A program made the translations under genes and the position numbers. From Candidatus Omnitrophota bacterium (GTDB lineage: Bacteria > Omnitrophota > Omnitrophia > Omnitrophales > JACROU01): a DNA stretch of 64,000 nt. This document shows positions 3,028-50,497 of the stretch, in pieces. The stretch's first letter is position 1. Each line of letters begins with the position of its first letter. The stretch spans positions 68,765 through 132,764 of the forward strand of contig JAJDCD010000004.1 of the NCBI GenBank assembly GCA_029261035.1, given 5' to 3'. Under the pieces are notes generated by a model. The model had not been told where the DNA came from and ran no database searches. It saw only the letters and a list, made by a program, of their open reading frames with translations.

Positions 3028-3103
3028 TTTGGTCGTAATTCTATAAATACAGGAATTATGAGTGTTTAGAGATGCTTATAGAAACAGACAACGGAGGCCT
3101 CTT

Positions 3104-3742
3104 ATGTATGATGAGATATCAAATGATTTAAATGAGCAGTTTAAAGACTTTCCTAGAAAAAAGACTCCTCTATGGGGAAAAGCTATAAAAACCATTCTAG
3201 AACAGAAGAAATCTAAAGGAGAAGATATCTCTATTCAGTCTCTAGCCAACAAAGCTGGGATGAATGATAAGAACCTGTTCAACATTGTAGCTGGACGAGT
3301 TCAGGATCCCTCCTCAGATAAATTAGTCCGTATTGCTGAGGCCTTAGGCCTTTCATTCCCAGAATTAGCAGAACGAGCCATTGGTGCTTGGGAAGGTTCT
3401 GTTTTTGTCTGTGGTTTCTCTCAGAGAGGTTATATCGACTACAGCCAGCATGGATTTGCGATTCAATCCTTAACTCCTCCAGGGGCAACTAATCGCGATT
3501 TTTTTGTAGGGCTAATGATGATTAAACCTTTTAAAGAAATGAAAAAGTGGAAGTTTGATAAAAATGCAACCATTTTCATGTTTGTCGAAAATGGAACCTT
3601 AGAAATAACGATTGGAAATCAAATCAAAACTGTAAATGCAAACGAATCCATTTACTTTGACGGCGGAATCTCACATAAAATAAAAAACGTAGACTCGATA
3701 GAAACAAAAATATTCCTAGTCACCCGCCCCCCCATGCATTAA
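3104..3742 (+). CDS. XRE-family HTH transcriptional regulator with C-terminal cupin domain
   Basis: HTH_XRE-like segment (SIQSLANKAGMNDKNLFNIVAGRVQDPSSDKLVRIAEALGLS) plus a cupin-like C-terminus. The ORF opens at 3062, but ATG 3104 has a GGAGG RBS 8 nt upstream. Confidence 0.7.
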   Translation: MYDEISNDLNEQFKDFPRKKTPLWGKAIKTILEQKKSKGEDISIQSLANKAGMNDKNLFNIVAGRVQDPSSDKLVRIAEALGLSFPELAERAIGAWEGSVFVCGFSQRGYIDYSQHGFAIQSLTPPGATNRDFFVGLMMIKPFKEMKKWKFDKNATIFMFVENGTLEITIGNQIKTVNANESIYFDGGISHKIKNVDSIETKIFLVTRPPMH

Positions 3743-3800
3743 AAAACAGAAGTCAGACGACAGAGGTCTGAAGACAGACATTACTTTTTATTTAAATCGC

Positions 3801-3996
3801 ATCGTCACACATGTGACGATACTGTTACCCTACAAAGCAAAAGTGCTCGATGCACTTTTGCTTTGTACCCTCTCACATCCCAGCGAAATAAGAAAAGCCC
3901 ATGGAACGTTCTCCACCGCGAGTTCACAACAGTGACAGTCACCGTAGGTGACAGTCACTGTTGTGCTGTCTGAGCGCTGGAGAACGTTCCATGGGC
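3801..3996. repeat. Copy A of a ~196-bp multi-hairpin structured repeat element
   Basis: Hairpin 1 (3801-3820, 8-bp stem). Hairpin 2 (3833-3865, 14-bp stem, GCTCGATG in the loop region). A 19-bp perfect outer stem (3897-3915 / 3978-3996) encloses the conserved core CCGCGAGTTCACAA (3916-3929), an inner 19-bp hairpin (3925-3965), and TTGTGCTGTCTGAGCGC (3961-3977). The same architecture and core recur at 35398-35592. Confidence 0.6.
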
Positions 3997-4019
3997 TGCA
4001 ACCCAACTCTAAATAGCTC

Positions 4020-4841
4020 TTACTTAACTAAACCATGCTTCTGACACATAGCCCTCAAAACCTCTTTCAACTTCTCAACCCCACTCATTTTATTGAGCAC
4101 CTCAAACCCACCTTCTCTAATACTCACAAGACGAGACGCAACATCTTCAGAAGAACTAAAAACCAAAAAGTCTTTTGGGCAATACGCTTCTCCATCTAAG
4201 AACTTCCTGATTAGTTCATCTCCCCACATATATTGCATCCTCATATCAACAATCATAAGATCGGGTTCAAACTCATTTGATATTTTAAAAGCTTCATCTC
4301 CCTGCGTAGTAAATCGAACTTCATAATCCGCATCTTCCGTATTTTGATTCAGTTCCTCCTGCAAATATTCACAAATTTCTTCTTCATCATCAACGAGTAA
4401 GATTTTAGCTTTAGGAATACCCTCTTCTACTATTGTACTTGAAGGTATTGGCACAGCATTATTTTCGAGAAGCCCTACAATACAATCATGCAAATCTTCG
4501 ATAGGATAAGGTTTATTAAAATAAGCTTTAACACTTAAAGCTTCTGATTCTTTTTTTAAAATTCCGGCCACCGATTGAACTATCAGCGGAATTTTAGGGT
4601 AAGCTAAGAGAATCTGTTTTACAGAATCCAAAACACCCATACCAGGCATATTGAGATCTAATAATACCAAACAGATATTCTCGTGAAATTCTTTTACTAT
4701 TTGAACCGCTTCTTTTCCACTTCCTGCAGTTTGAATCGTGTATCCCTTAGGGTTCAGCAATTGGTTCAACATAAAGATAATATCCTTATCATCATCACAG
4801 ATCAAAATTGTATTTTTATTCGGCATCCTTTTTCCTTCCAT
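4020..4841 (-). CDS. Response regulator with two tandem receiver domains and no output domain
   Basis: Two REC signatures (ILICDDDKDI... and ILLVDDEEEICEYL...). The ORF extends to 4853. Start ambiguous between 4841 and 4826. Confidence 0.7.
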   Translation of the reverse strand: MEGKRMPNKNTILICDDDKDIIFMLNQLLNPKGYTIQTAGSGKEAVQIVKEFHENICLVLLDLNMPGMGVLDSVKQILLAYPKIPLIVQSVAGILKKESEALSVKAYFNKPYPIEDLHDCIVGLLENNAVPIPSSTIVEEGIPKAKILLVDDEEEICEYLQEELNQNTEDADYEVRFTTQGDEAFKISNEFEPDLMIVDMRMQYMWGDELIRKFLDGEAYCPKDFLVFSSSEDVASRLVSIREGGFEVLNKMSGVEKLKEVLRAMCQKHGLVK

Positions 4842-4842
4842 G

Positions 4843-5646
4843 CTATATATCATAAATGTCAGGTCTACGATCTTCTAGGACCTTCATTTGACTTCTAACC
4901 TCTTCGGTACGAGATAAATCGATCGTTTCAGTAACTAAAATTTCTTGCTGATCGTTTGTTTCAATGATGACATTGCCCCACGGGTCAATAATCGTAGAAT
5001 TACCACAAAAGGTTACATCTTCTCCACGCCCAAAATCTTTTGTTCCAACTTGATTCACAGCGATAATAAACATCTGATTCTCAATAGCTCTAGCCTTTAA
5101 AAGAGTCTTTAAATGATCTTTCCTTGGATGCGGAAAAGCCAAAGGAATAAGTGCTATATCTGCCCCTTTTAAAGCATAAGAACGAAAAACTTCTGGAAAG
5201 CGAATATCATAACAAATAGCAAGCCCCGTCTTACCCCAAGGAGCCTCCACGATAGTTAACTCTTTTCCTGGAGTTAAATGCTTGTCTTCTTCTGCAAAAC
5301 TAAACAAGTGGGTTTTTCGGTAAAGAGCACTTTGGTTTCCTTCTGGATCAAATAATATTGAGGTATTTGTTGGCTTTTGATCTTCATTTAAAGAAAGGAC
5401 AGAACCACTAATCCAAATCTGATAATCATCTGCAAGATCAGAAATTGCTTGAATGGTATGATCAAATGTATTCGCTAATTTTTTATTCTTCTTCCAATTA
5501 AATCCCGTTGTCCATAACTCTGGAAAAACAATGAGTTCCGAACCCTTTTTAGAAGCTTCTTCCACATATTTCTTTGCTTTTTTTAAATTTCCTTTAGGAT
5601 CACCCGTAATTACATCAATTTGTGCAAGAGACAACTTTAATTTCAC
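4843..5646 (-). CDS. Carbon-nitrogen hydrolase (nitrilase/Nit superfamily)
   Basis: 267 aa. Glu-Lys-Cys triad context: VFPELW, YRKTHLF, LAICYDIRFPE. Confidence 0.8.
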   Translation of the reverse strand: MKLKLSLAQIDVITGDPKGNLKKAKKYVEEASKKGSELIVFPELWTTGFNWKKNKKLANTFDHTIQAISDLADDYQIWISGSVLSLNEDQKPTNTSILFDPEGNQSALYRKTHLFSFAEEDKHLTPGKELTIVEAPWGKTGLAICYDIRFPEVFRSYALKGADIALIPLAFPHPRKDHLKTLLKARAIENQMFIIAVNQVGTKDFGRGEDVTFCGNSTIIDPWGNVIIETNDQQEILVTETIDLSRTEEVRSQMKVLEDRRPDIYDI

Positions 5647-11685: not shown

Positions 11686-12744
11686 TTAAACGTTATGGTA
11701 TGTATTACTATGATTACTATTAACTGAAAGCTTTTTTAGTAAACTGATGTCACTCAAATAGCGTCCTGTCCCTAAAGCGATTGCAGTTAACGGATCATCC
11801 GCAATATGCACTGGTAATCCCGTTTCTTCCATGATCAACTTGTCTAAATTTCTCAATAACGCTCCACCACCCGCAAGAATAAGCCCACGAGACAATAAGT
11901 CGGCTGATAGCTCTGGAGGAGTTCTTTCTAAGGTAATACGAATTGCTTCTAAAATATGTGCCGTAGGCTCAGCTAATGCTTCCCTCACCTCTTCACTTGT
12001 TATAGTGATTGTTTTTGGCAACCCCGCCAAAATATCACGACCTTTCACTTCCATGGTCAATTCTTCTTCCAATGGAAATGCAGAACCGATACGAATTTTA
12101 ATGTCTTCAGCGGTTCTTTCTCCGATCAACAAGTTATAGGTTTTTTTCAAGTGTTGGATAATAGACTCATCAAATTCATCTCCACCAATACGAATACTTT
12201 TTGCATAAACAATCCCCGCAAGAGAAATAACAGCCATCTCAGTTGTTCCTCCACCAATATCAATAACCATATTTCCAGCAGGCTCTTGAATTGGAAGCCC
12301 AACACCAATTGCAGCAGCAATAGGTTCTTCAACTAAGTAAACAGGACTGCGAGCACCTGCTCTTTCAGCACTATCTTTCACAGCTCTCTTCTCTACCTCA
12401 GTAATTCCACTAGGCACAGCAATCACAACTCTAGGACTCACAAGTCTTTTATGTTGATGAACTTTTCTAATGAAATAACGGAGCATGCTTTCTGTCATAT
12501 CAAAATCTGCAATAACTCCATCTTTTAATGGTCGGATAGCAACAATGTTGCCTGGGGTTCTTCCTAACATTCTTTTTGCTTCTTCGCCAACAGCAACGAT
12601 GTTACTCGTACCTCGTTCAACGGCTACAACAGAAGGTTCGCATAGTACGACCCCTTGCCCTTTTACATAAACAAGCGTATTTGCTGTTCCTAAATCTATT
12701 CCGATATCGTTGGAGAACATCCCCATGAATTTACTGAAAACCAT
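11686..12744 (-). CDS. mreB: Rod shape-determining actin homologue MreB
   Basis: [19 protein letters not shown]... ATPase motifs of the MreB/actin fold. The start may be the internal Met at 12717. Confidence 0.9.
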
Positions 12745-32354: not shown

Positions 32355-32430
32355 TGGTAGCCCCTACGGGAGTTGAACCCGTGTTACCTGGCTGAGAACC
32401 AGGCGTCCTAGACCACTAGACGAAGGGGCC
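32355..32430 (-). tRNA. tRNA-Glu (anticodon CUC)
   Basis: Reverse complement GGCCCCTTCGTCTAGTGGTCTAGGACGCCTGGTTCTCAGCCAGGTAACACGGGTTCAACTCCCGTAGGGGCTACCA folds as a cloverleaf. Anticodon stem CCTGG/CCAGG, loop TTCTCAG. T-arm and acceptor closely parallel E. coli tRNA-Glu. 3' CCA is encoded. Confidence 0.85.
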
Positions 32431-34501: not shown

Positions 34502-35359
34502 TTAAGCCTTAACTTGCTTTTCTCGAGAAACAAACCAAACAAAAGCACCCATAAGAATCATAAAACCCCAGCCCATGAGGCCTCCGTAATACTCTCCTCC
34601 ACCCCAAAATAAAGTTGGATCTGGATTTTTCTCTGCAATAAAATTAACGTCTACTTTTAGGAACATCACTGCTCCTGCATGAATTCCTATAGCTAAGTAA
34701 AGAGCACGCGTACGCAAATAGGCATATTGAAGAACAAAACCAAACAAAAGCAAACCTACGAATGATGGCAGAATATTTTGCCAATCCCCTAAAGGTTTAA
34801 GCCAAGAAAGTAAAACACTAAAACTATCAGAAATTGTTGGCTCTACCCACTCTTGTTTCGATCCTCTAAAAAAATGAACGATAGCATAAAAAGCATTGGT
34901 GATAATAAAACTCCAAGCACGATGCATGAATTTACAAAGAGAAAGAAACACAAATCCTCTAAAAAAGAATTCTTCCAATGTAGCAACAAGCAACCCTGTT
35001 CCTAACGCTTTAAATACTCTCTCTGGAATACGATCCCATTTAACACGAAGGCCAATATCATAAACACCAAAAAAAGACTCAAAAATAGCCATTCCAAAAA
35101 GAATACCAGAACCTAATAGAATCCCAATCCCAATAAGACGCCACCAATTTGTATCCGCCGTAAAACCAAAACGCCTAAACGCTCCTAAGTCTTTACGAAT
35201 AAATAGTGCTATAGCAACAAATCCACTAATCATAATCAAACGAGAAAGAACTCTTTCAAAAGGATACTTATCCTGAACTATCGAATAAATAAACGGTGCC
35301 AAAACCGCAGGAATGACTACAACTGCAGCTAAAGCTAATAATAATTTCAAAATTTTCAT
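34502..35359 (-). CDS. CPBP family intramembrane metalloprotease (CAAX protease-like)
   Basis: EEFFFRG motif 1 and FxxxH motif 2 in a polytopic membrane protein. True start MKILKLLLAL at 35359. The 35482 ORF extension is spurious read-through into repeat element B. Confidence 0.75.
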   Translation of the reverse strand: MKILKLLLALAAVVVIPAVLAPFIYSIVQDKYPFERVLSRLIMISGFVAIALFIRKDLGAFRRFGFTADTNWWRLIGIGILLGSGILFGMAIFESFFGVYDIGLRVKWDRIPERVFKALGTGLLVATLEEFFFRGFVFLSLCKFMHRAWSFIITNAFYAIVHFFRGSKQEWVEPTISDSFSVLLSWLKPLGDWQNILPSFVGLLLFGFVLQYAYLRTRALYLAIGIHAGAVMFLKVDVNFIAEKNPDPTLFWGGGEYYGGLMGWGFMILMGAFVWFVSREKQVKA

Positions 35360-35397
35360 GCTAAACCTTTCGTTATTTATAGTTTTTGGTGCAAACG

Positions 35398-35592
35398 GAG
35401 CGTCATATACATGACGCTCACAGCAAATACCAAGGGCAAAAGAAGGGCTCGATGTACTTCTTTTGCCATCCCCCTCCAACACACACCCAAATGTTGTTCA
35501 AATTAAAGGAAAACGAAGTGTGCTCGCCGCGAGTTCACAAAAATAGATTCTCAATTTTTGTGCTGTCTGAGCGCCGAGGATACTTCGTTTTC
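35398..35592. repeat. Copy B of the ~196-bp multi-hairpin structured repeat element
   Basis: Hairpin 1 (35398-35419, 9-bp stem). Hairpin 2 (35435-35467, 11-bp stem, loop contains GCTCGATG). Imperfect 19-bp outer stem (35508-35526 / 35575-35592) enclosing CCGCGAGTTCACAA (35527-35540), an 8-bp inner hairpin, and TTGTGCTGTCTGAGCGC (35558-35574). Same order and spacing as copy A. Confidence 0.6.
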
Positions 35593-35601
35593 TGGTACAA
35601 C

Positions 35602-36054
35602 CTAAACAGATAAAGTTAGTTCCAGTTCAACAAAAGCATTCATTGGTAAACTATTAACCCCTACAGCAGAGCGAGCATGTTTGCCCCGTTCTCCAAAAAC
35701 TTCTAAAAATAGATCCGATGCCCCATTAATTACTTGTGGATGCTCTGTGAACCCTTCCATACTCTGAACATAACCCACCAACCGTATAATCCTGTCCACT
35801 TTATCTAAACTCCCTAAAAACCCTCTTATAACACCCAACGCATTTAGTGCAGCAATTCGAGCTGCTTGCTGTCCTCGATCATTCTTATCAGCCCCACCTT
35901 TACCCGTAAAGATATCTCCATTAGCAATTTTAGGCAAAACACCACTTAGAAATACAAGGTTACCCACCTGAGTTATTGGAACATAGGAGCCTAGAGGCTT
36001 CGGAGGTTCTGGAATAAACAAACCCATCTCTTCTATTTTCTGTTCTGCACTCAT
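35602..36054 (-). CDS. ridA: RidA/YjgF family reactive-intermediate deaminase
   Basis: YjgF/chorismate-mutase-like fold motifs. Likely start at MSAEQKIEE (36054). Confidence 0.8.
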   Translation of the reverse strand: MSAEQKIEEMGLFIPEPPKPLGSYVPITQVGNLVFLSGVLPKIANGDIFTGKGGADKNDRGQQAARIAALNALGVIRGFLGSLDKVDRIIRLVGYVQSMEGFTEHPQVINGASDLFLEVFGERGKHARSAVGVNSLPMNAFVELELTLSV

Positions 36055-36764
36055 ACTGTCTTCTCCGCAATAATCATAGTACAAATACCAAAAGTAAATG
36101 ATTTCGTATTAACTTTTTTAAATCCTGCATCTTTTATTTTTTGTTCTAATTCAGAAACTCCATAAAATTTCTGAATCGAACTAGAAAGAAATTTATAAGC
36201 ATTCCATGACCCAGAAAAAAAACGGCCTACGAATGGAAGATAAATATTAAGGTAGGGAAAATAAAGAGCCTTCATCCACCAAGACGTTGGGCGCGTTAAT
36301 TCTAAAATAACGAACTTCCCCTTCGAACTCAATACGCGATAACTCTCTTGAAACAAAGAATCTAAATCTGCAATACTTCTTAAAACAAAAGCTGAACTAA
36401 TTAAGTCAAACTGATCATCTTCATAGGGAAGTTTTGGTAACTCAACAACATCTAATTTAGCTTTATTTCCCAATCGCTGCTCTGCCTGTTTTAACATTTC
36501 TTTCGAAAAATCAGCCCCAACTGCTTTTTCGAAAGGGTGAAAACGAGTGATGTCATACAAAAAAACACCTGAACCCGTTCCGATATCAAGAACAGAGTTC
36601 ATCCAAGGCTCTACAGACTGACGAACCGCCTTACGCCTCCAACCATCATCTCTTTTAAAACTTAAAAACTTATTGAGAAAATCATATTTAGGAGCAATCA
36701 CATCAAAGATTTGATTAATTTCCGAAGGATGTTTTGTGTATTCTGGAAGTTGTGTTGAATTCAT
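36051..36764 (-). CDS. ubiE: Demethylmenaquinone methyltransferase (UbiE/MenG family)
   Basis: SAM-binding motif VLDIGTGSGVF. UbiE family. Adjacent to mqn genes. Likely start at MNSTQL (36764). Confidence 0.8.
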   Translation of the reverse strand: MNSTQLPEYTKHPSEINQIFDVIAPKYDFLNKFLSFKRDDGWRRKAVRQSVEPWMNSVLDIGTGSGVFLYDITRFHPFEKAVGADFSKEMLKQAEQRLGNKAKLDVVELPKLPYEDDQFDLISSAFVLRSIADLDSLFQESYRVLSSKGKFVILELTRPTSWWMKALYFPYLNIYLPFVGRFFSGSWNAYKFLSSSIQKFYGVSELEQKIKDAGFKKVNTKSFTFGICTMIIAEKTV

Positions 36765-36780
36765 AGGATCCTGCTTTGGG

Positions 36781-37884
36781 CTAATCACAATGCCTAATAA
36801 TTTTATAATTTGTATCTCGTTGAGCAGCTTTATAACCTGCTTTTTTAATGAGACGAATAAATTCATCCACGTTAGTGTCATTTACGATACCCGTCGCTTT
36901 AACAACCCTTTCTTCCATCAAGATACCACCCATATCGTTAGCACCAAAAGCCAAAGCTGTTTGAGCCATCTTAACCCCTTCTGTAACCCAACCTGTTTGG
37001 AAATTAGGAATGTTATCCATCATCAAACGACCCACAGCCATGGTGCGAACATAATCTTCTCCTCCTGCCATAGGAAGATGACTCATTCTAGGGGTCCCCG
37101 GAGAAGAAAAACTCCAAGGGATAAATGCTCGAAATACTTCTGTTTCATCTTGCAGCTGTCTCAATTTTAAAAAATGGATCACTCGTTCTTCGATCGTTTC
37201 TACATGACCATACATCATTGTCGCAGAAGCTTTGAGTCCTACATTATGGCACGATCTCATAATATCTAACCAACGATCTGCAGAAGCTTTCTTAGGGCTA
37301 ATTTCCTTTCGAACGCGATCTACTAAAATTTCAGCTCCACCTCCAGGAAAAGAATTTAATCCAGCTGCTTTTAATTCTTCAAAAACTTGTTCCGCTGTCA
37401 TTTTTTCAGATTTACACAAATAATCAATTTCTTCTGGGGACATGGAGTGTATGTGTACATGGGGATACTTCTCCATAACTTTTTGAAATAGATTCACATA
37501 GTGTTTTAATCTTAAATCGGGGTTGATCCCTCCCTGAAACAACACTTGAGTGCCTCCCAAAGCTGTTAAATCATCCAAGTTTTGGTATACCTCGTCGAGC
37601 TCAGTCACATAACCCTTATCAGAACGTGGCGGAGTATAAAAGGCACAAAATCCACAATCAATAATACACACATTGGTTGTTGCTACATTGCGATCAATAA
37701 CAAAGGTAACAATACCTTCTGGGTGCAACTCGTTTCTTACTTGAGTTGCCGCATGACCTAGCAAAGTTAAATCTGCATTGAACAGCAAGATACCTTCTTC
37801 TAAACTTAATCGATCTCCACCTAACCTTTTTTCAATAATGCTTTCTACTACTGTTGAATCAACCGTTGATGAACGTTCTATCAT
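36781..37884 (-). CDS. Futalosine-pathway radical SAM enzyme (MqnC/MqnE family)
   Basis: CxxxCxxC (CIIDCGFCAF) and MqnC/MqnE-type C-terminal region. I cannot distinguish MqnC from MqnE by eye. Confidence 0.75.
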   Translation of the reverse strand: MIERSSTVDSTVVESIIEKRLGGDRLSLEEGILLFNADLTLLGHAATQVRNELHPEGIVTFVIDRNVATTNVCIIDCGFCAFYTPPRSDKGYVTELDEVYQNLDDLTALGGTQVLFQGGINPDLRLKHYVNLFQKVMEKYPHVHIHSMSPEEIDYLCKSEKMTAEQVFEELKAAGLNSFPGGGAEILVDRVRKEISPKKASADRWLDIMRSCHNVGLKASATMMYGHVETIEERVIHFLKLRQLQDETEVFRAFIPWSFSSPGTPRMSHLPMAGGEDYVRTMAVGRLMMDNIPNFQTGWVTEGVKMAQTALAFGANDMGGILMEERVVKATGIVNDTNVDEFIRLIKKAGYKAAQRDTNYKIIRHCD

Positions 37885-44904: not shown

Positions 44905-45798
44905 TCATCCTCTAGGGTGAAATTGGGTGTGAATTCCTTTGAGACGGTCTTTGGAAACATGCGTATATATTTGAGTTGTGCTGATATCTGCGTGCCCCAA
45001 GAGTTCTTGAACAATTCTAAGATCTGCCCCACCTTCAAGCAAATGTGTGGCAAATGAATGGCGAAATGTATGTGGGGTTATTCTCTTCTTAAGATGCGCT
45101 TCCTTCGTGTACTTTTTAATAATTTTCCAAAACGATTGTCGGGTTAGCTTTTTTCCCTGACGATTCAGAAACAACTCAGATGAAGGAGACTTAACCTTAC
45201 TTCGGATATGTTTAATATAACTTTGAATAACCTCATTCGCTATTCGACCTAACGGGATCATTCTCTCCTTCCCCCCTTTACCCATACACTTCAAAATTGA
45301 AGCTTCAAAATTAAGATCCGCTAATTTTAAATTAACAATCTCTGATACACGCATCCCTGTAGCATAAAACAGCTCTAGAATAGCTCTGTCACGCACTTTC
45401 TTACGAGAACCACCCGAAGTAGCTTTAATCATCTTTTCAACCTCGACAAAGGATAAAAAGTCCGGTAGCTTTTTCCATGTTTTCGGAGATTCCAAAGTGG
45501 AAGTAATGTCTTTTTTTAAATAACGCTCTCGAACTAGAAAACGATGAAAAATCTTTACAGACACAAGGTGTCTCGCTATAGATGTCGTAGCTAAACCTTT
45601 ATTCTTTAGCTCCATTAAAAAAGCATGAATTTTTTGAGGGTTTACTTTTTCCAATTCGACTAATTTACTTTTTCTTAAAAAAGTCACATAATCCCGGAGA
45701 TCTCTTTGATAAGCCATTAAACTATTTTTAGCCAATAACTTCTCAACAGAAAGATATTCCATAAAAAGTTGTATATAAGAATCCAACCGATCAGCCAT
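44905..45798 (-). CDS. xerD: Tyrosine recombinase XerD/XerC family
   Basis: 297 aa. RHRY catalytic residues (HTFRHSFATHLL...LGHADISTTQIYTHV). 8 bp downstream of ligA. Confidence 0.8.
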   Translation of the reverse strand: MADRLDSYIQLFMEYLSVEKLLAKNSLMAYQRDLRDYVTFLRKSKLVELEKVNPQKIHAFLMELKNKGLATTSIARHLVSVKIFHRFLVRERYLKKDITSTLESPKTWKKLPDFLSFVEVEKMIKATSGGSRKKVRDRAILELFYATGMRVSEIVNLKLADLNFEASILKCMGKGGKERMIPLGRIANEVIQSYIKHIRSKVKSPSSELFLNRQGKKLTRQSFWKIIKKYTKEAHLKKRITPHTFRHSFATHLLEGGADLRIVQELLGHADISTTQIYTHVSKDRLKGIHTQFHPRG

Positions 45799-50419: not shown

Positions 50420-50497
50420 CGGGATGTAGCTCAGCTTGGCTAGAGCGCTTCGTTCGGGACGAAGAGGTCGGAGGTTCAAATCCCCCCATCCCGACCA
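50420..50497 (+). tRNA. tRNA-Pro (anticodon CGG)
   Basis: CGGGATGTAGCTCAGCTTGGCTAGAGCGCTTCGTTCGGGACGAAG... Cloverleaf with anticodon stem CTTCG/CGAAG, loop TTCGGGA. Closely parallels E. coli tRNA-Pro(CGG). CCA encoded. A 9-bp hairpin follows at 50498-50520. Confidence 0.85.

Follow-up and report, generated by a model that had tools for sequence, protein, structure and literature searches.

What fills the space between ridA and the CPBP protease gene that follows it in a genome of Candidatus Omnitrophota, and how did it come to be there? We examined this in a stretch of 64,000 nucleotides (contig JAJDCD010000004.1, positions 68,765 to 132,764; the whole stretch is called the window here). The gap comprises 242 nt (35360-35601) between the ridA stop codon, TAG (35604-35602, minus strand), and the CPBP start codon, ATG (35359-35357, minus strand), and Pfam assigns its flanking genes to YjgF/RidA and Rce1-like CPBP. 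Across it lies a non-coding, hairpin-rich element of ~226 nt (copy B, 35381-35606), which has a second copy in the same window (copy A, 3785-4013, minus strand). On balance, we think it probable that the element is a mobile, non-autonomous palindromic intergenic sequence that, once transcribed, forms a hairpin at the 3' end of a minus-strand mRNA. Its closest known kind is the GTAG-tagged repetitive extragenic palindrome (REP) and the REP-doublet hairpin (REPIN), and it can be described as a palindromic repeat resembling REPINs and miniature inverted-repeat transposable elements (MITEs).

Insertion and architecture of the two copies

The closest genome compared, an Omnitrophota relative (L009/L010) whose CPBP protein is 69% identical to that of the window, shares the window's gene order (UbiD, UbiA, flavoprotein, mqn genes, ubiE, ridA, CPBP and glycosyltransferase), and there ridA and CPBP are spaced by 14 nt (TAG TTAGAAAGGGAATT ATG) as against 242 nt in the window. 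The relative's ridA ends in ...GCTGTAAATAACTAG, whereas the window reads ...TCTGT, then TTAG, the element, AAAAACTA and finally TAAATAACGAAAGG. From this comparison we infer that CTGT and TAAATAAC flank the element and that the ridA stop is now part of its terminal TTTAG, with the exact junction uncertain because the relative is distant. On this comparison of sequences, copy B is an inserted DNA element at the very end of ridA. Site A is likewise free of the element in the same relative, with only simple hairpins between the response-regulator and cupin genes.

Read along the minus strand, which is the orientation of the genes, copy B opens with the tag TTTAG (35602-35606), whose TAG is the ridA stop codon. 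The core module is a large hairpin (35508-35593) recovered by folding, by an alignment of 14 sequences and by a covariance model (63.8 bits for copy B; the last two are described below). It is made of an outer stem (35508-35528/35573-35593), an invariant bubble, GCGAGTT/CTGTCTGAGC (35529-35535/35563-35572), and an inner hairpin (35536-35562); on the plus strand the outer stem encloses CCGCGAGTTCACAA, then the inner hairpin, and then TTGTGCTGTCTGAGCGC. In the minimum-free-energy fold, the outer stem has 21 pairs including one G.U and spans 35508-35530/35571-35593. Reading of the sequence places a T-rich tract, CTTTAATTT, 3' of the large hairpin on the minus strand. The spacer GGGUGUGUGUUGGAGGGGGAUGG (35468-35507; 3868-3895 in copy A) is G-rich on the minus strand and C-rich on the plus strand, and leads to hairpin 2 (35435-35445/35457-35467), which has a stem of 11-13 bp, GGCAAAAGAAG/CTTCTTTTGCC, and the loop GCTCGATG on the plus strand. 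Hairpin 1 (35398-35406/35411-35419) has a 9-bp stem, GAGCGTCAT/ATGACGCTC, with CGTCA...TGACG. The 3' end of the element, CGTTTGCACCAAAAACT(A) (35381-35397), shares its outline with copy A (CGATTTAAATAAAAAGTA), and the boundary is placed from the empty site in L009; by the same comparison, what follows (35361-35379) is presumably the original intergenic remnant, TAAATAACGAAAGG, together with the CPBP ribosome-binding site. The hairpins, outer stem and gene boundaries of copy B were all found where the first-pass annotation of this DNA had placed them, although the 16 of 19 bp that it gave for the outer stem is to be read as an approximate count only.

Copy A sits between converging genes, an XRE/cupin gene (3062-3742, plus strand, stop 3740-3742) and a response regulator (4020-4853, minus strand, stop 4020-4022). 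Its fold and coordinates bear out the earlier description of one four-module order in both copies: the tag CTAAA (TTTAG on the minus strand; 4009-4013) stands 11 nt before the outer stem, the large hairpin spans 3896-3997 by both fold and covariance model, and folding places hairpin 2 at 3831-3867 and hairpin 1 at 3801-3820, all on the minus strand. A T-rich minus-strand tract, TTTTCTTATTT, follows the large hairpin here as well. Against shuffled controls, the folding z-scores were -14.7 (plus strand) and -14.1 (minus strand) for copy A, and -7.9 (plus strand) and -5.0 (minus strand) for copy B. A conserved 14-mer and a conserved 17-mer each occur exactly twice in the window, and in both cases none of 100 shuffles had two or more matches. 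Between the two copies, all four stems (those of hairpins 1 and 2, the outer and the inner one) carry paired changes, while both strands of the bubble are identical. Hairpin 1 differs by three double compensatory changes and no single one; hairpin 2 differs by a paired 3-nt indel in the stem besides paired changes, and its loop is identical. The right flanks of the copies had also been reported to be similar. This holds for TTTAG...GGTTG..CA (minus strand), which is the element's own end and includes the ridA stop in copy B, but the remainder of the earlier alignment falls within the coding part of ridA. The window's own organism is also represented by two Logan contigs: L016 contains an identical copy A, and L015 stops 17 nt past the response-regulator stop, inside the element end and 5 nt before the large hairpin.

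Two further observations concern these copies. The hairpin 2 loop GCUCG (35446-35456; 3847-3851 in copy A) is complementary to CGAGU and UGAGC of the bubble (35529-35535/35563-35572; 3918-3975 in copy A), so a kissing contact between loop and bubble is possible on either strand, as judged from two sequences only. A short hairpin between the XRE/cupin stop and copy A (3753-3779) resembles a terminator in both directions, with a T run on each strand. With a plus-strand terminator before it and a minus-strand terminator after it, copy A would be inside the minus-strand transcription unit and outside the plus-strand one.

The open reading frame (ORF) called for CPBP (34502..35482) passes through hairpins 1 and 2 and adds 41 codons upstream of MKILKLLL (35360-35482, minus strand). 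These codons are a translation through the element and not protein, as the first-pass annotation had argued, and the true start is the ATG at 35359-35357: a database protein 100% identical to the window CPBP is 285 amino acids long and begins MKILKLLL, CPBP homologues (which mark the organism as related to Candidatus Omnitrophica) are 276-298 amino acids long, and the CPBP of L009 begins at the equivalent MKI codon, 14 nt after ridA. A check for a conserved small ORF within the element found none, because the core is read in different frames in the two copies (SPRVHK versus TASSQQ). For annotation, the 41-codon extension is to be removed. Mechanically called ORFs for ubiE (36051-36881) and ridA (35602-36084) also carry long N-terminal extensions that overlap the upstream genes, and their listed starts are probably too far upstream; the most likely ridA start is MSAEQK (36054), and the ubiE product has 237 amino acids in the relative versus a 276-amino-acid ORF in the window.

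The large hairpin in other phyla

To see how far the core reaches, its exact pattern was scanned against 185,579 species representatives (one genome per species) and 241 million metagenome records. There was one match among the species representatives, a metagenome-assembled genome of Fibrobacteria with 63% GC, and six contigs matched among the metagenome records (61-67% GC), one of which carries an atpD closest to that of Ca. Krumholzibacteria/Gemmatimonadota (86% identity). In the 14 instances that we aligned, 5'-GCGAGTT and CTGYCTGAGC-3' are invariant, and all instances fold alike: a nearly perfect outer stem (15-31 bp) leads to the bubble, beyond which come an inner stem (9-12 bp) and a tip that varies. 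The triplet that closes the inner stem covaries (CAC/GTG, GAC/GTC, GGC/GCC). Over the whole alignment 86.6% of the cells are paired and double, compensatory changes occur in 20 of the 25 pairs; none of 500 shuffles reached the observed values, and the signal collapses when the partner columns are shifted.

With a covariance model made from these sequences, the 17 true instances scored at least 63.8 bits, and nothing else in the ~260 kb of both searches scored above 15 bits. The model found just copies A and B in the window, and no additional or degenerate copy in the window, the Omnitrophota relative or the Krumholzibacteria loci. A match in a viral contig (L008) was set aside as chance, since it is without an outer stem and scores 14.6 bits. 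No Rfam family matched the element when all 4227 families were searched at gathering and permissive thresholds against the window, both copies and seven related loci; over the element there were only sub-threshold hairpins resembling microRNAs, and elsewhere only tRNAs and a cobalamin riboswitch exceeded the threshold. In the window itself, tRNA-Glu(CTC) (32355-32430, minus strand) and tRNA-Pro(CGG) (50420-50497, plus strand) are the only Rfam/ARAGORN matches. A full-text literature search for the core sequences gave only unrelated primers and microRNAs, and topical literature searching gave nothing specific. The element belongs to an undescribed family of REP-like palindromic elements, present in at least three lineages of different phyla.

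Two of these lineages showed additional structure around the core. The Fibrobacteria genome (L001, 1720-1900) has a second, different complex palindrome beside the core, GCGGGGCCGGAAAAAGTTCCGG ... CCGGAATTTTTCCGGCCCCGC, which encloses further inverted repeats and is not similar to either hairpin 1 or hairpin 2 of the window. In the high-GC copies the tips of the inner hairpins (for example L002 1520-1545, L005 7400-7425 and L006 2185-2205) keep a constant length of ~50 nt and are of two sequence types that pair up in dimers, with a recurrent (A/C)A(A/G)GC(A/G) motif that is absent from the Omnitrophota copies.

Position, orientation and rearrangement

Read along the upstream gene, the element always runs CTCAGRCAG...AACTCGC and starts a few nucleotides past the stop codon. 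This rule of position and orientation was seen at window sites A and B and in L001, L003, L004, L002/L005, L006 and L007; the orientation is obeyed by all five independent single copies and by the gene-proximal member of every inverted pair. The outer stem begins 5-25 nt after the upstream stop in the window copies and in L001-L005. In L001 the copy follows a DHFR gene, and in L003 and L004 a plus-strand ORF terminates in TAG 5 nt before the stem. A K-TAG (TTAG or GTAG) is present 2-11 nt before the outer stem in six of the seven independent stop-adjacent copies, and in four of them (window B, L001, L004 and L002/L005) it is the upstream stop codon itself.

The first-pass annotation had offered two explanations for the proximity to stop codons, an insertion preference for the 3' ends of genes or a function in the 3' untranslated or intercistronic region of minus-strand transcripts, and had proposed looking at the context of further copies. 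The loci recovered since then support this pair of ideas: both window sites are empty in the relative, and in every other locus the core stands a few nucleotides downstream of a stop codon, in the same orientation. The two explanations are not mutually exclusive. Within the window, orientation to genes is inseparable from orientation to replication, because 50 of the 52 ORFs of at least 150 amino acids are on the minus strand and the plus-strand GC skew stays between -0.15 and -0.27; all of the window is on one replichore with extreme gene-strand bias.

The window copies are single. In the high-GC lineage the usual arrangement is an inverted pair of units separated by a palindromic spacer of 70-110 nt, with the tags facing outwards (L002, L005, L006, L007 and L021); such a pair is bounded by a further inverted repeat of 21-23 bp (GCGTGAGGCNGTGCTTGGGCC), and the complete structure folds into a four-way junction. 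How variable these pairs are among close strains can be seen at the site downstream of atpC. L021 (2900-3350) and L007 (1715-2075), whose atpD genes are 99-100% identical, both carry a double unit of ~330 nt, while L019 (atpD 96%) has an empty spacer of 106 nt at the same site (4817-4924) and L011 (atpD 100%; 11800-12255) has the double unit inverted, partly rearranged and partly truncated. The orthologous loci L002 and L005, which are 89% identical in DNA, have kept both units with identical cores, and in one 16-bp stem they have diverged by three compensatory double changes plus a single one. There are no one-sided (G.U) changes in the inner stem among the 14 sequences, and the count of wobble pairs is 31 versus 28 when either strand is folded, which shows no strand bias; an earlier assignment to the plus strand, based on hand-counted G.U versus A.C, was dropped on account of this symmetry. 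The polymorphism and the pairing are consistent with a DNA palindrome that undergoes movement, loss and inversion while its pairing is maintained, and are compatible with selection on RNA too. As a separate observation, a segment of 830 nt that codes for a 319-aa (amino acid) protein is present in L002 (485-1314) and absent in L005 (~7484), and one of its boundaries is ~20 nt from the element pair.

Known repeats, rival explanations and mechanism

Among known systems, the GTAG-tagged REPs carry an unpaired tag by a palindrome with a bulged stem, occur mostly as head-to-head dimers 20-100 bp apart, and are distributed patchily over eight phyla including the PVC group (PMC3733652). In Escherichia coli, GTAG and a conserved AA/GC bulge are the determinants by which TnpA(REP) recognizes the REP, and only one folded strand is bound (PMC8266576). 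The element described here has much in common with them. A (K)TAG is found 5' of the palindrome in both, although here in most stop-adjacent copies and at some distance from the stem, and is often the TAG stop of the upstream ORF; both stand close to where the upstream gene ends (within ~20 nt), and the two genes on either side are co-directional or convergent; both form inverted head-to-head dimers with a short spacer (70-110 nt here, in the high-GC lineage); both have a stem broken by a conserved asymmetric bulge, which in the E. coli REP is the AA/GC required by the enzyme; and both are patchy over distant phyla and probably transcribed into an RNA hairpin. In the present family, it is the bubble (7 + 10 nt) that is conserved and the stems that are free. 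The copy number is apparently low, the tag is 2-11 nt from the stem, and no RAYT (REP-associated tyrosine transposase, PF01797) gene turned up either in the window or among the listed genes of the loci. Since the REP traits are shared but stem conservation fails and no transposase was seen, we class the element as REP/REPIN-like in its working and not as a demonstrated member.

Two other kinds of repeat were compared. Correia/NEMIS, ERIC, BOX, RUP, bacterial interspersed mosaic elements and MITEs are non-coding, repeated, variable between strains and co-transcribed with their neighbours. The inverted repeats of 21-23 bp that bound the high-GC double unit, and its presence or absence between close strains, recall them; in contrast to them, we identified no target-site duplication, the copies of one genome share only short islands, and the core occurs in different phyla. 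The attC sites of integrons conserve structure over sequence, follow a gene in fixed orientation, are unpaired at the centre and variable in their terminal structure, and are recognized as folded single-stranded DNA. The element resembles them in standing directly after a gene in fixed orientation, with an unpaired centre and a variable tip, but its neighbours are conserved housekeeping operons and not cassettes, and no integron integrase was found. It was rejected as an attC because the base of the hairpin has no R''/R' boxes (RYYYAAC/GTTRRRY), and GCGAGTT/CTGYCTGAGC are buried in outer stems of 15-30 bp. On sequence grounds, we also rejected a K-turn (whose GA pairs would have to be on the other side of the bulge), a retron msr/msd (no reverse transcriptase, and the wrong a1/a2 topology), CRISPR repeats (a mere resemblance of the hexamers GTTCAC/GAGTTC to type I-F and I-E repeats) and hammerhead, hairpin and twister ribozymes, 6S RNA, signal recognition particle RNA and Tn3-type inverted repeats.

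The closest model for mobilization is that of REP/REPIN with HUH tyrosine transposases (RAYT, and TnpA of IS200/IS605). By analogy, and with moderate confidence, we propose that the tag and the bulged hairpin would be recognized in single-stranded DNA by an HUH-type enzyme that acts in trans to copy or move the element. If that enzyme is itself horizontally distributed, as we propose, this would explain the patchy occurrence of the core in unrelated phyla. After insertion, again with moderate confidence, the element would be transcribed together with ridA as the 3' end of the upstream minus-strand mRNA. The hairpin, very stable by prediction (-40 to -75 kcal/mol) and with CUUUAAUUU downstream of it (UUUUCUUAUUU in copy A), could then serve as a terminator or attenuator and as a block to 3' exonucleases, and the element may uncouple ridA from CPBP. 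CPBP might then be expressed by read-through or from an outward promoter near hairpin 1. A precedent for such effects exists in E. coli, where the REP in the malE-malF spacer attenuates read-through and protects the upstream mRNA. The T-rich tract that follows the large hairpin on the minus strand in both window copies would give a U-rich tract in this low-GC genome, as in an intrinsic terminator; a terminator scan, which considered loops of 3-8 nt only, did not call the large hairpins.

Several observations weigh against a mobile, REP-like element. No RAYT, IS200/IS605 or any other transposase was found in the 64-kb window or among the called genes of the related loci, and the 50 window ORFs that were scanned are all housekeeping genes, with no partner gene among them. 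The stem of a REP is conserved, 20-40 bp long and often present in more than 100 copies, whereas here the stems are unrelated between A, B and the other loci and there are only 2 copies in 64 kb; the covariance model found zero copies in 33 kb of the Omnitrophota relative. The unit is also longer, at 77-104 nt, and the element measures 100-230 nt; it reaches ~226 nt with the two extra hairpins in Omnitrophota, and ~330 nt as the bounded double unit of the high-GC lineage. The tag does not abut the stem, varies in distance from it, and is degenerate (GTGC) or absent in the second members of dimers. The high-GC copies are without a T run, so a classical role as intrinsic terminator would not be general. 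Finally, the identical core and the compensatory stem changes of L002/L005 are equally expected from selection on RNA. Apart from these points, we note the sole recombinase in the window, a XerC/XerD-type tyrosine recombinase (44905-45798, Phage_integrase with a SAM-like N domain) beside ligA, which is probably the housekeeping Xer.

Selection on RNA is also the basis of the alternative that survives best, which we consider possible though unlikely: that the element is a selected, cis-acting structured RNA motif of mRNA 3' ends, whose bubble would be a site for an RNA-binding protein, or a tertiary or catalytic motif, governing termination, processing or stability of the upstream minus-strand transcript. 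The fixed orientation to the upstream gene next to its stop codon, the strong covariation around an internal loop (5 x 8-10 nt) that is invariant across phyla, the retention of the orthologous L002/L005 copies, and the complementarity of the hairpin 2 loop to the bubble in both window copies would all be expected of such a motif. Against it, any single transcript of a dimer would carry one of the two members in reverse, G.U intermediates are absent from the inner stem, and the wobble pairs show no strand asymmetry. The occurrence of the exact core is patchy (the single species representative and the six contigs described above), its presence, absence and inversion vary among close strains, and no Rfam family matches it.

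An independent small RNA gene on the plus strand, antisense to its neighbours and built from hairpins 1 and 2, a C-rich single-stranded seed and, as terminator, the large hairpin, is improbable. The bubble can indeed form tandem sheared G.A pairs beside GC pairs on the plus strand, a common RNA motif, the large hairpin of copy B ends in UUUUCU on the plus strand, and the C-rich spacer (CCCUCC) is like an anti-Shine-Dalgarno seed. Yet there is no promoter-like site upstream of either copy on the plus strand, copy A is preceded by the terminator-like hairpin with its T run, and its own large hairpin is without a plus-strand U-tract. An independent gene would not be expected always to lie a few nucleotides from a convergent stop codon. 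The C-richness matches the skew found throughout the window, and in the high-GC dimers only the 70-110 nt of palindromic spacer would be left for two divergent promoters.

Unrelated ordinary terminators, chance palindromes or true CPBP coding sequence, which one might suppose because hairpins commonly follow stop codons and an ORF crosses the region, are refuted by the 14- and 17-mers shared by both copies with none of 100 shuffles giving two or more matches, the same bubble in other phyla, the separation of instances by the covariance model, the MKIL start of the database CPBP and its homologues, and the lack of frame conservation between the copies.

We tentatively suggest, as an unlikely possibility, that the invariant bubble GCGAGUU/CUGYCUGAGC with its covarying helices is a new functional nucleic-acid motif common to Omnitrophota, Fibrobacterota and Krumholzibacteriota/Gemmatimonadota-like bacteria. 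It might be the recognition site of an unrecognized family of single-strand DNA transposases (or their domesticated relatives), or else mark mRNA 3' ends as an RNA motif that binds a protein or processes itself; an accessory hairpin, with a loop that can kiss the bubble, would accompany it in Omnitrophota. In the organism studied here, the ridA stop codon appears to have been donated by a repeat, and the change from a 14-nt, probably translationally coupled junction to a structured spacer of ~240 nt offers a natural experiment on the uncoupling of an operon. More broadly, palindromic repeats that resemble REPs and adjoin stop codons exist in poorly studied, uncultivated phyla, with a conserved bubble in place of a conserved stem. 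The cognate enzyme, if found, would extend the REP/RAYT paradigm, and the significance would be greater still if the invariant bubble turned out to be acted on by a new family of enzymes or to function as an RNA motif.

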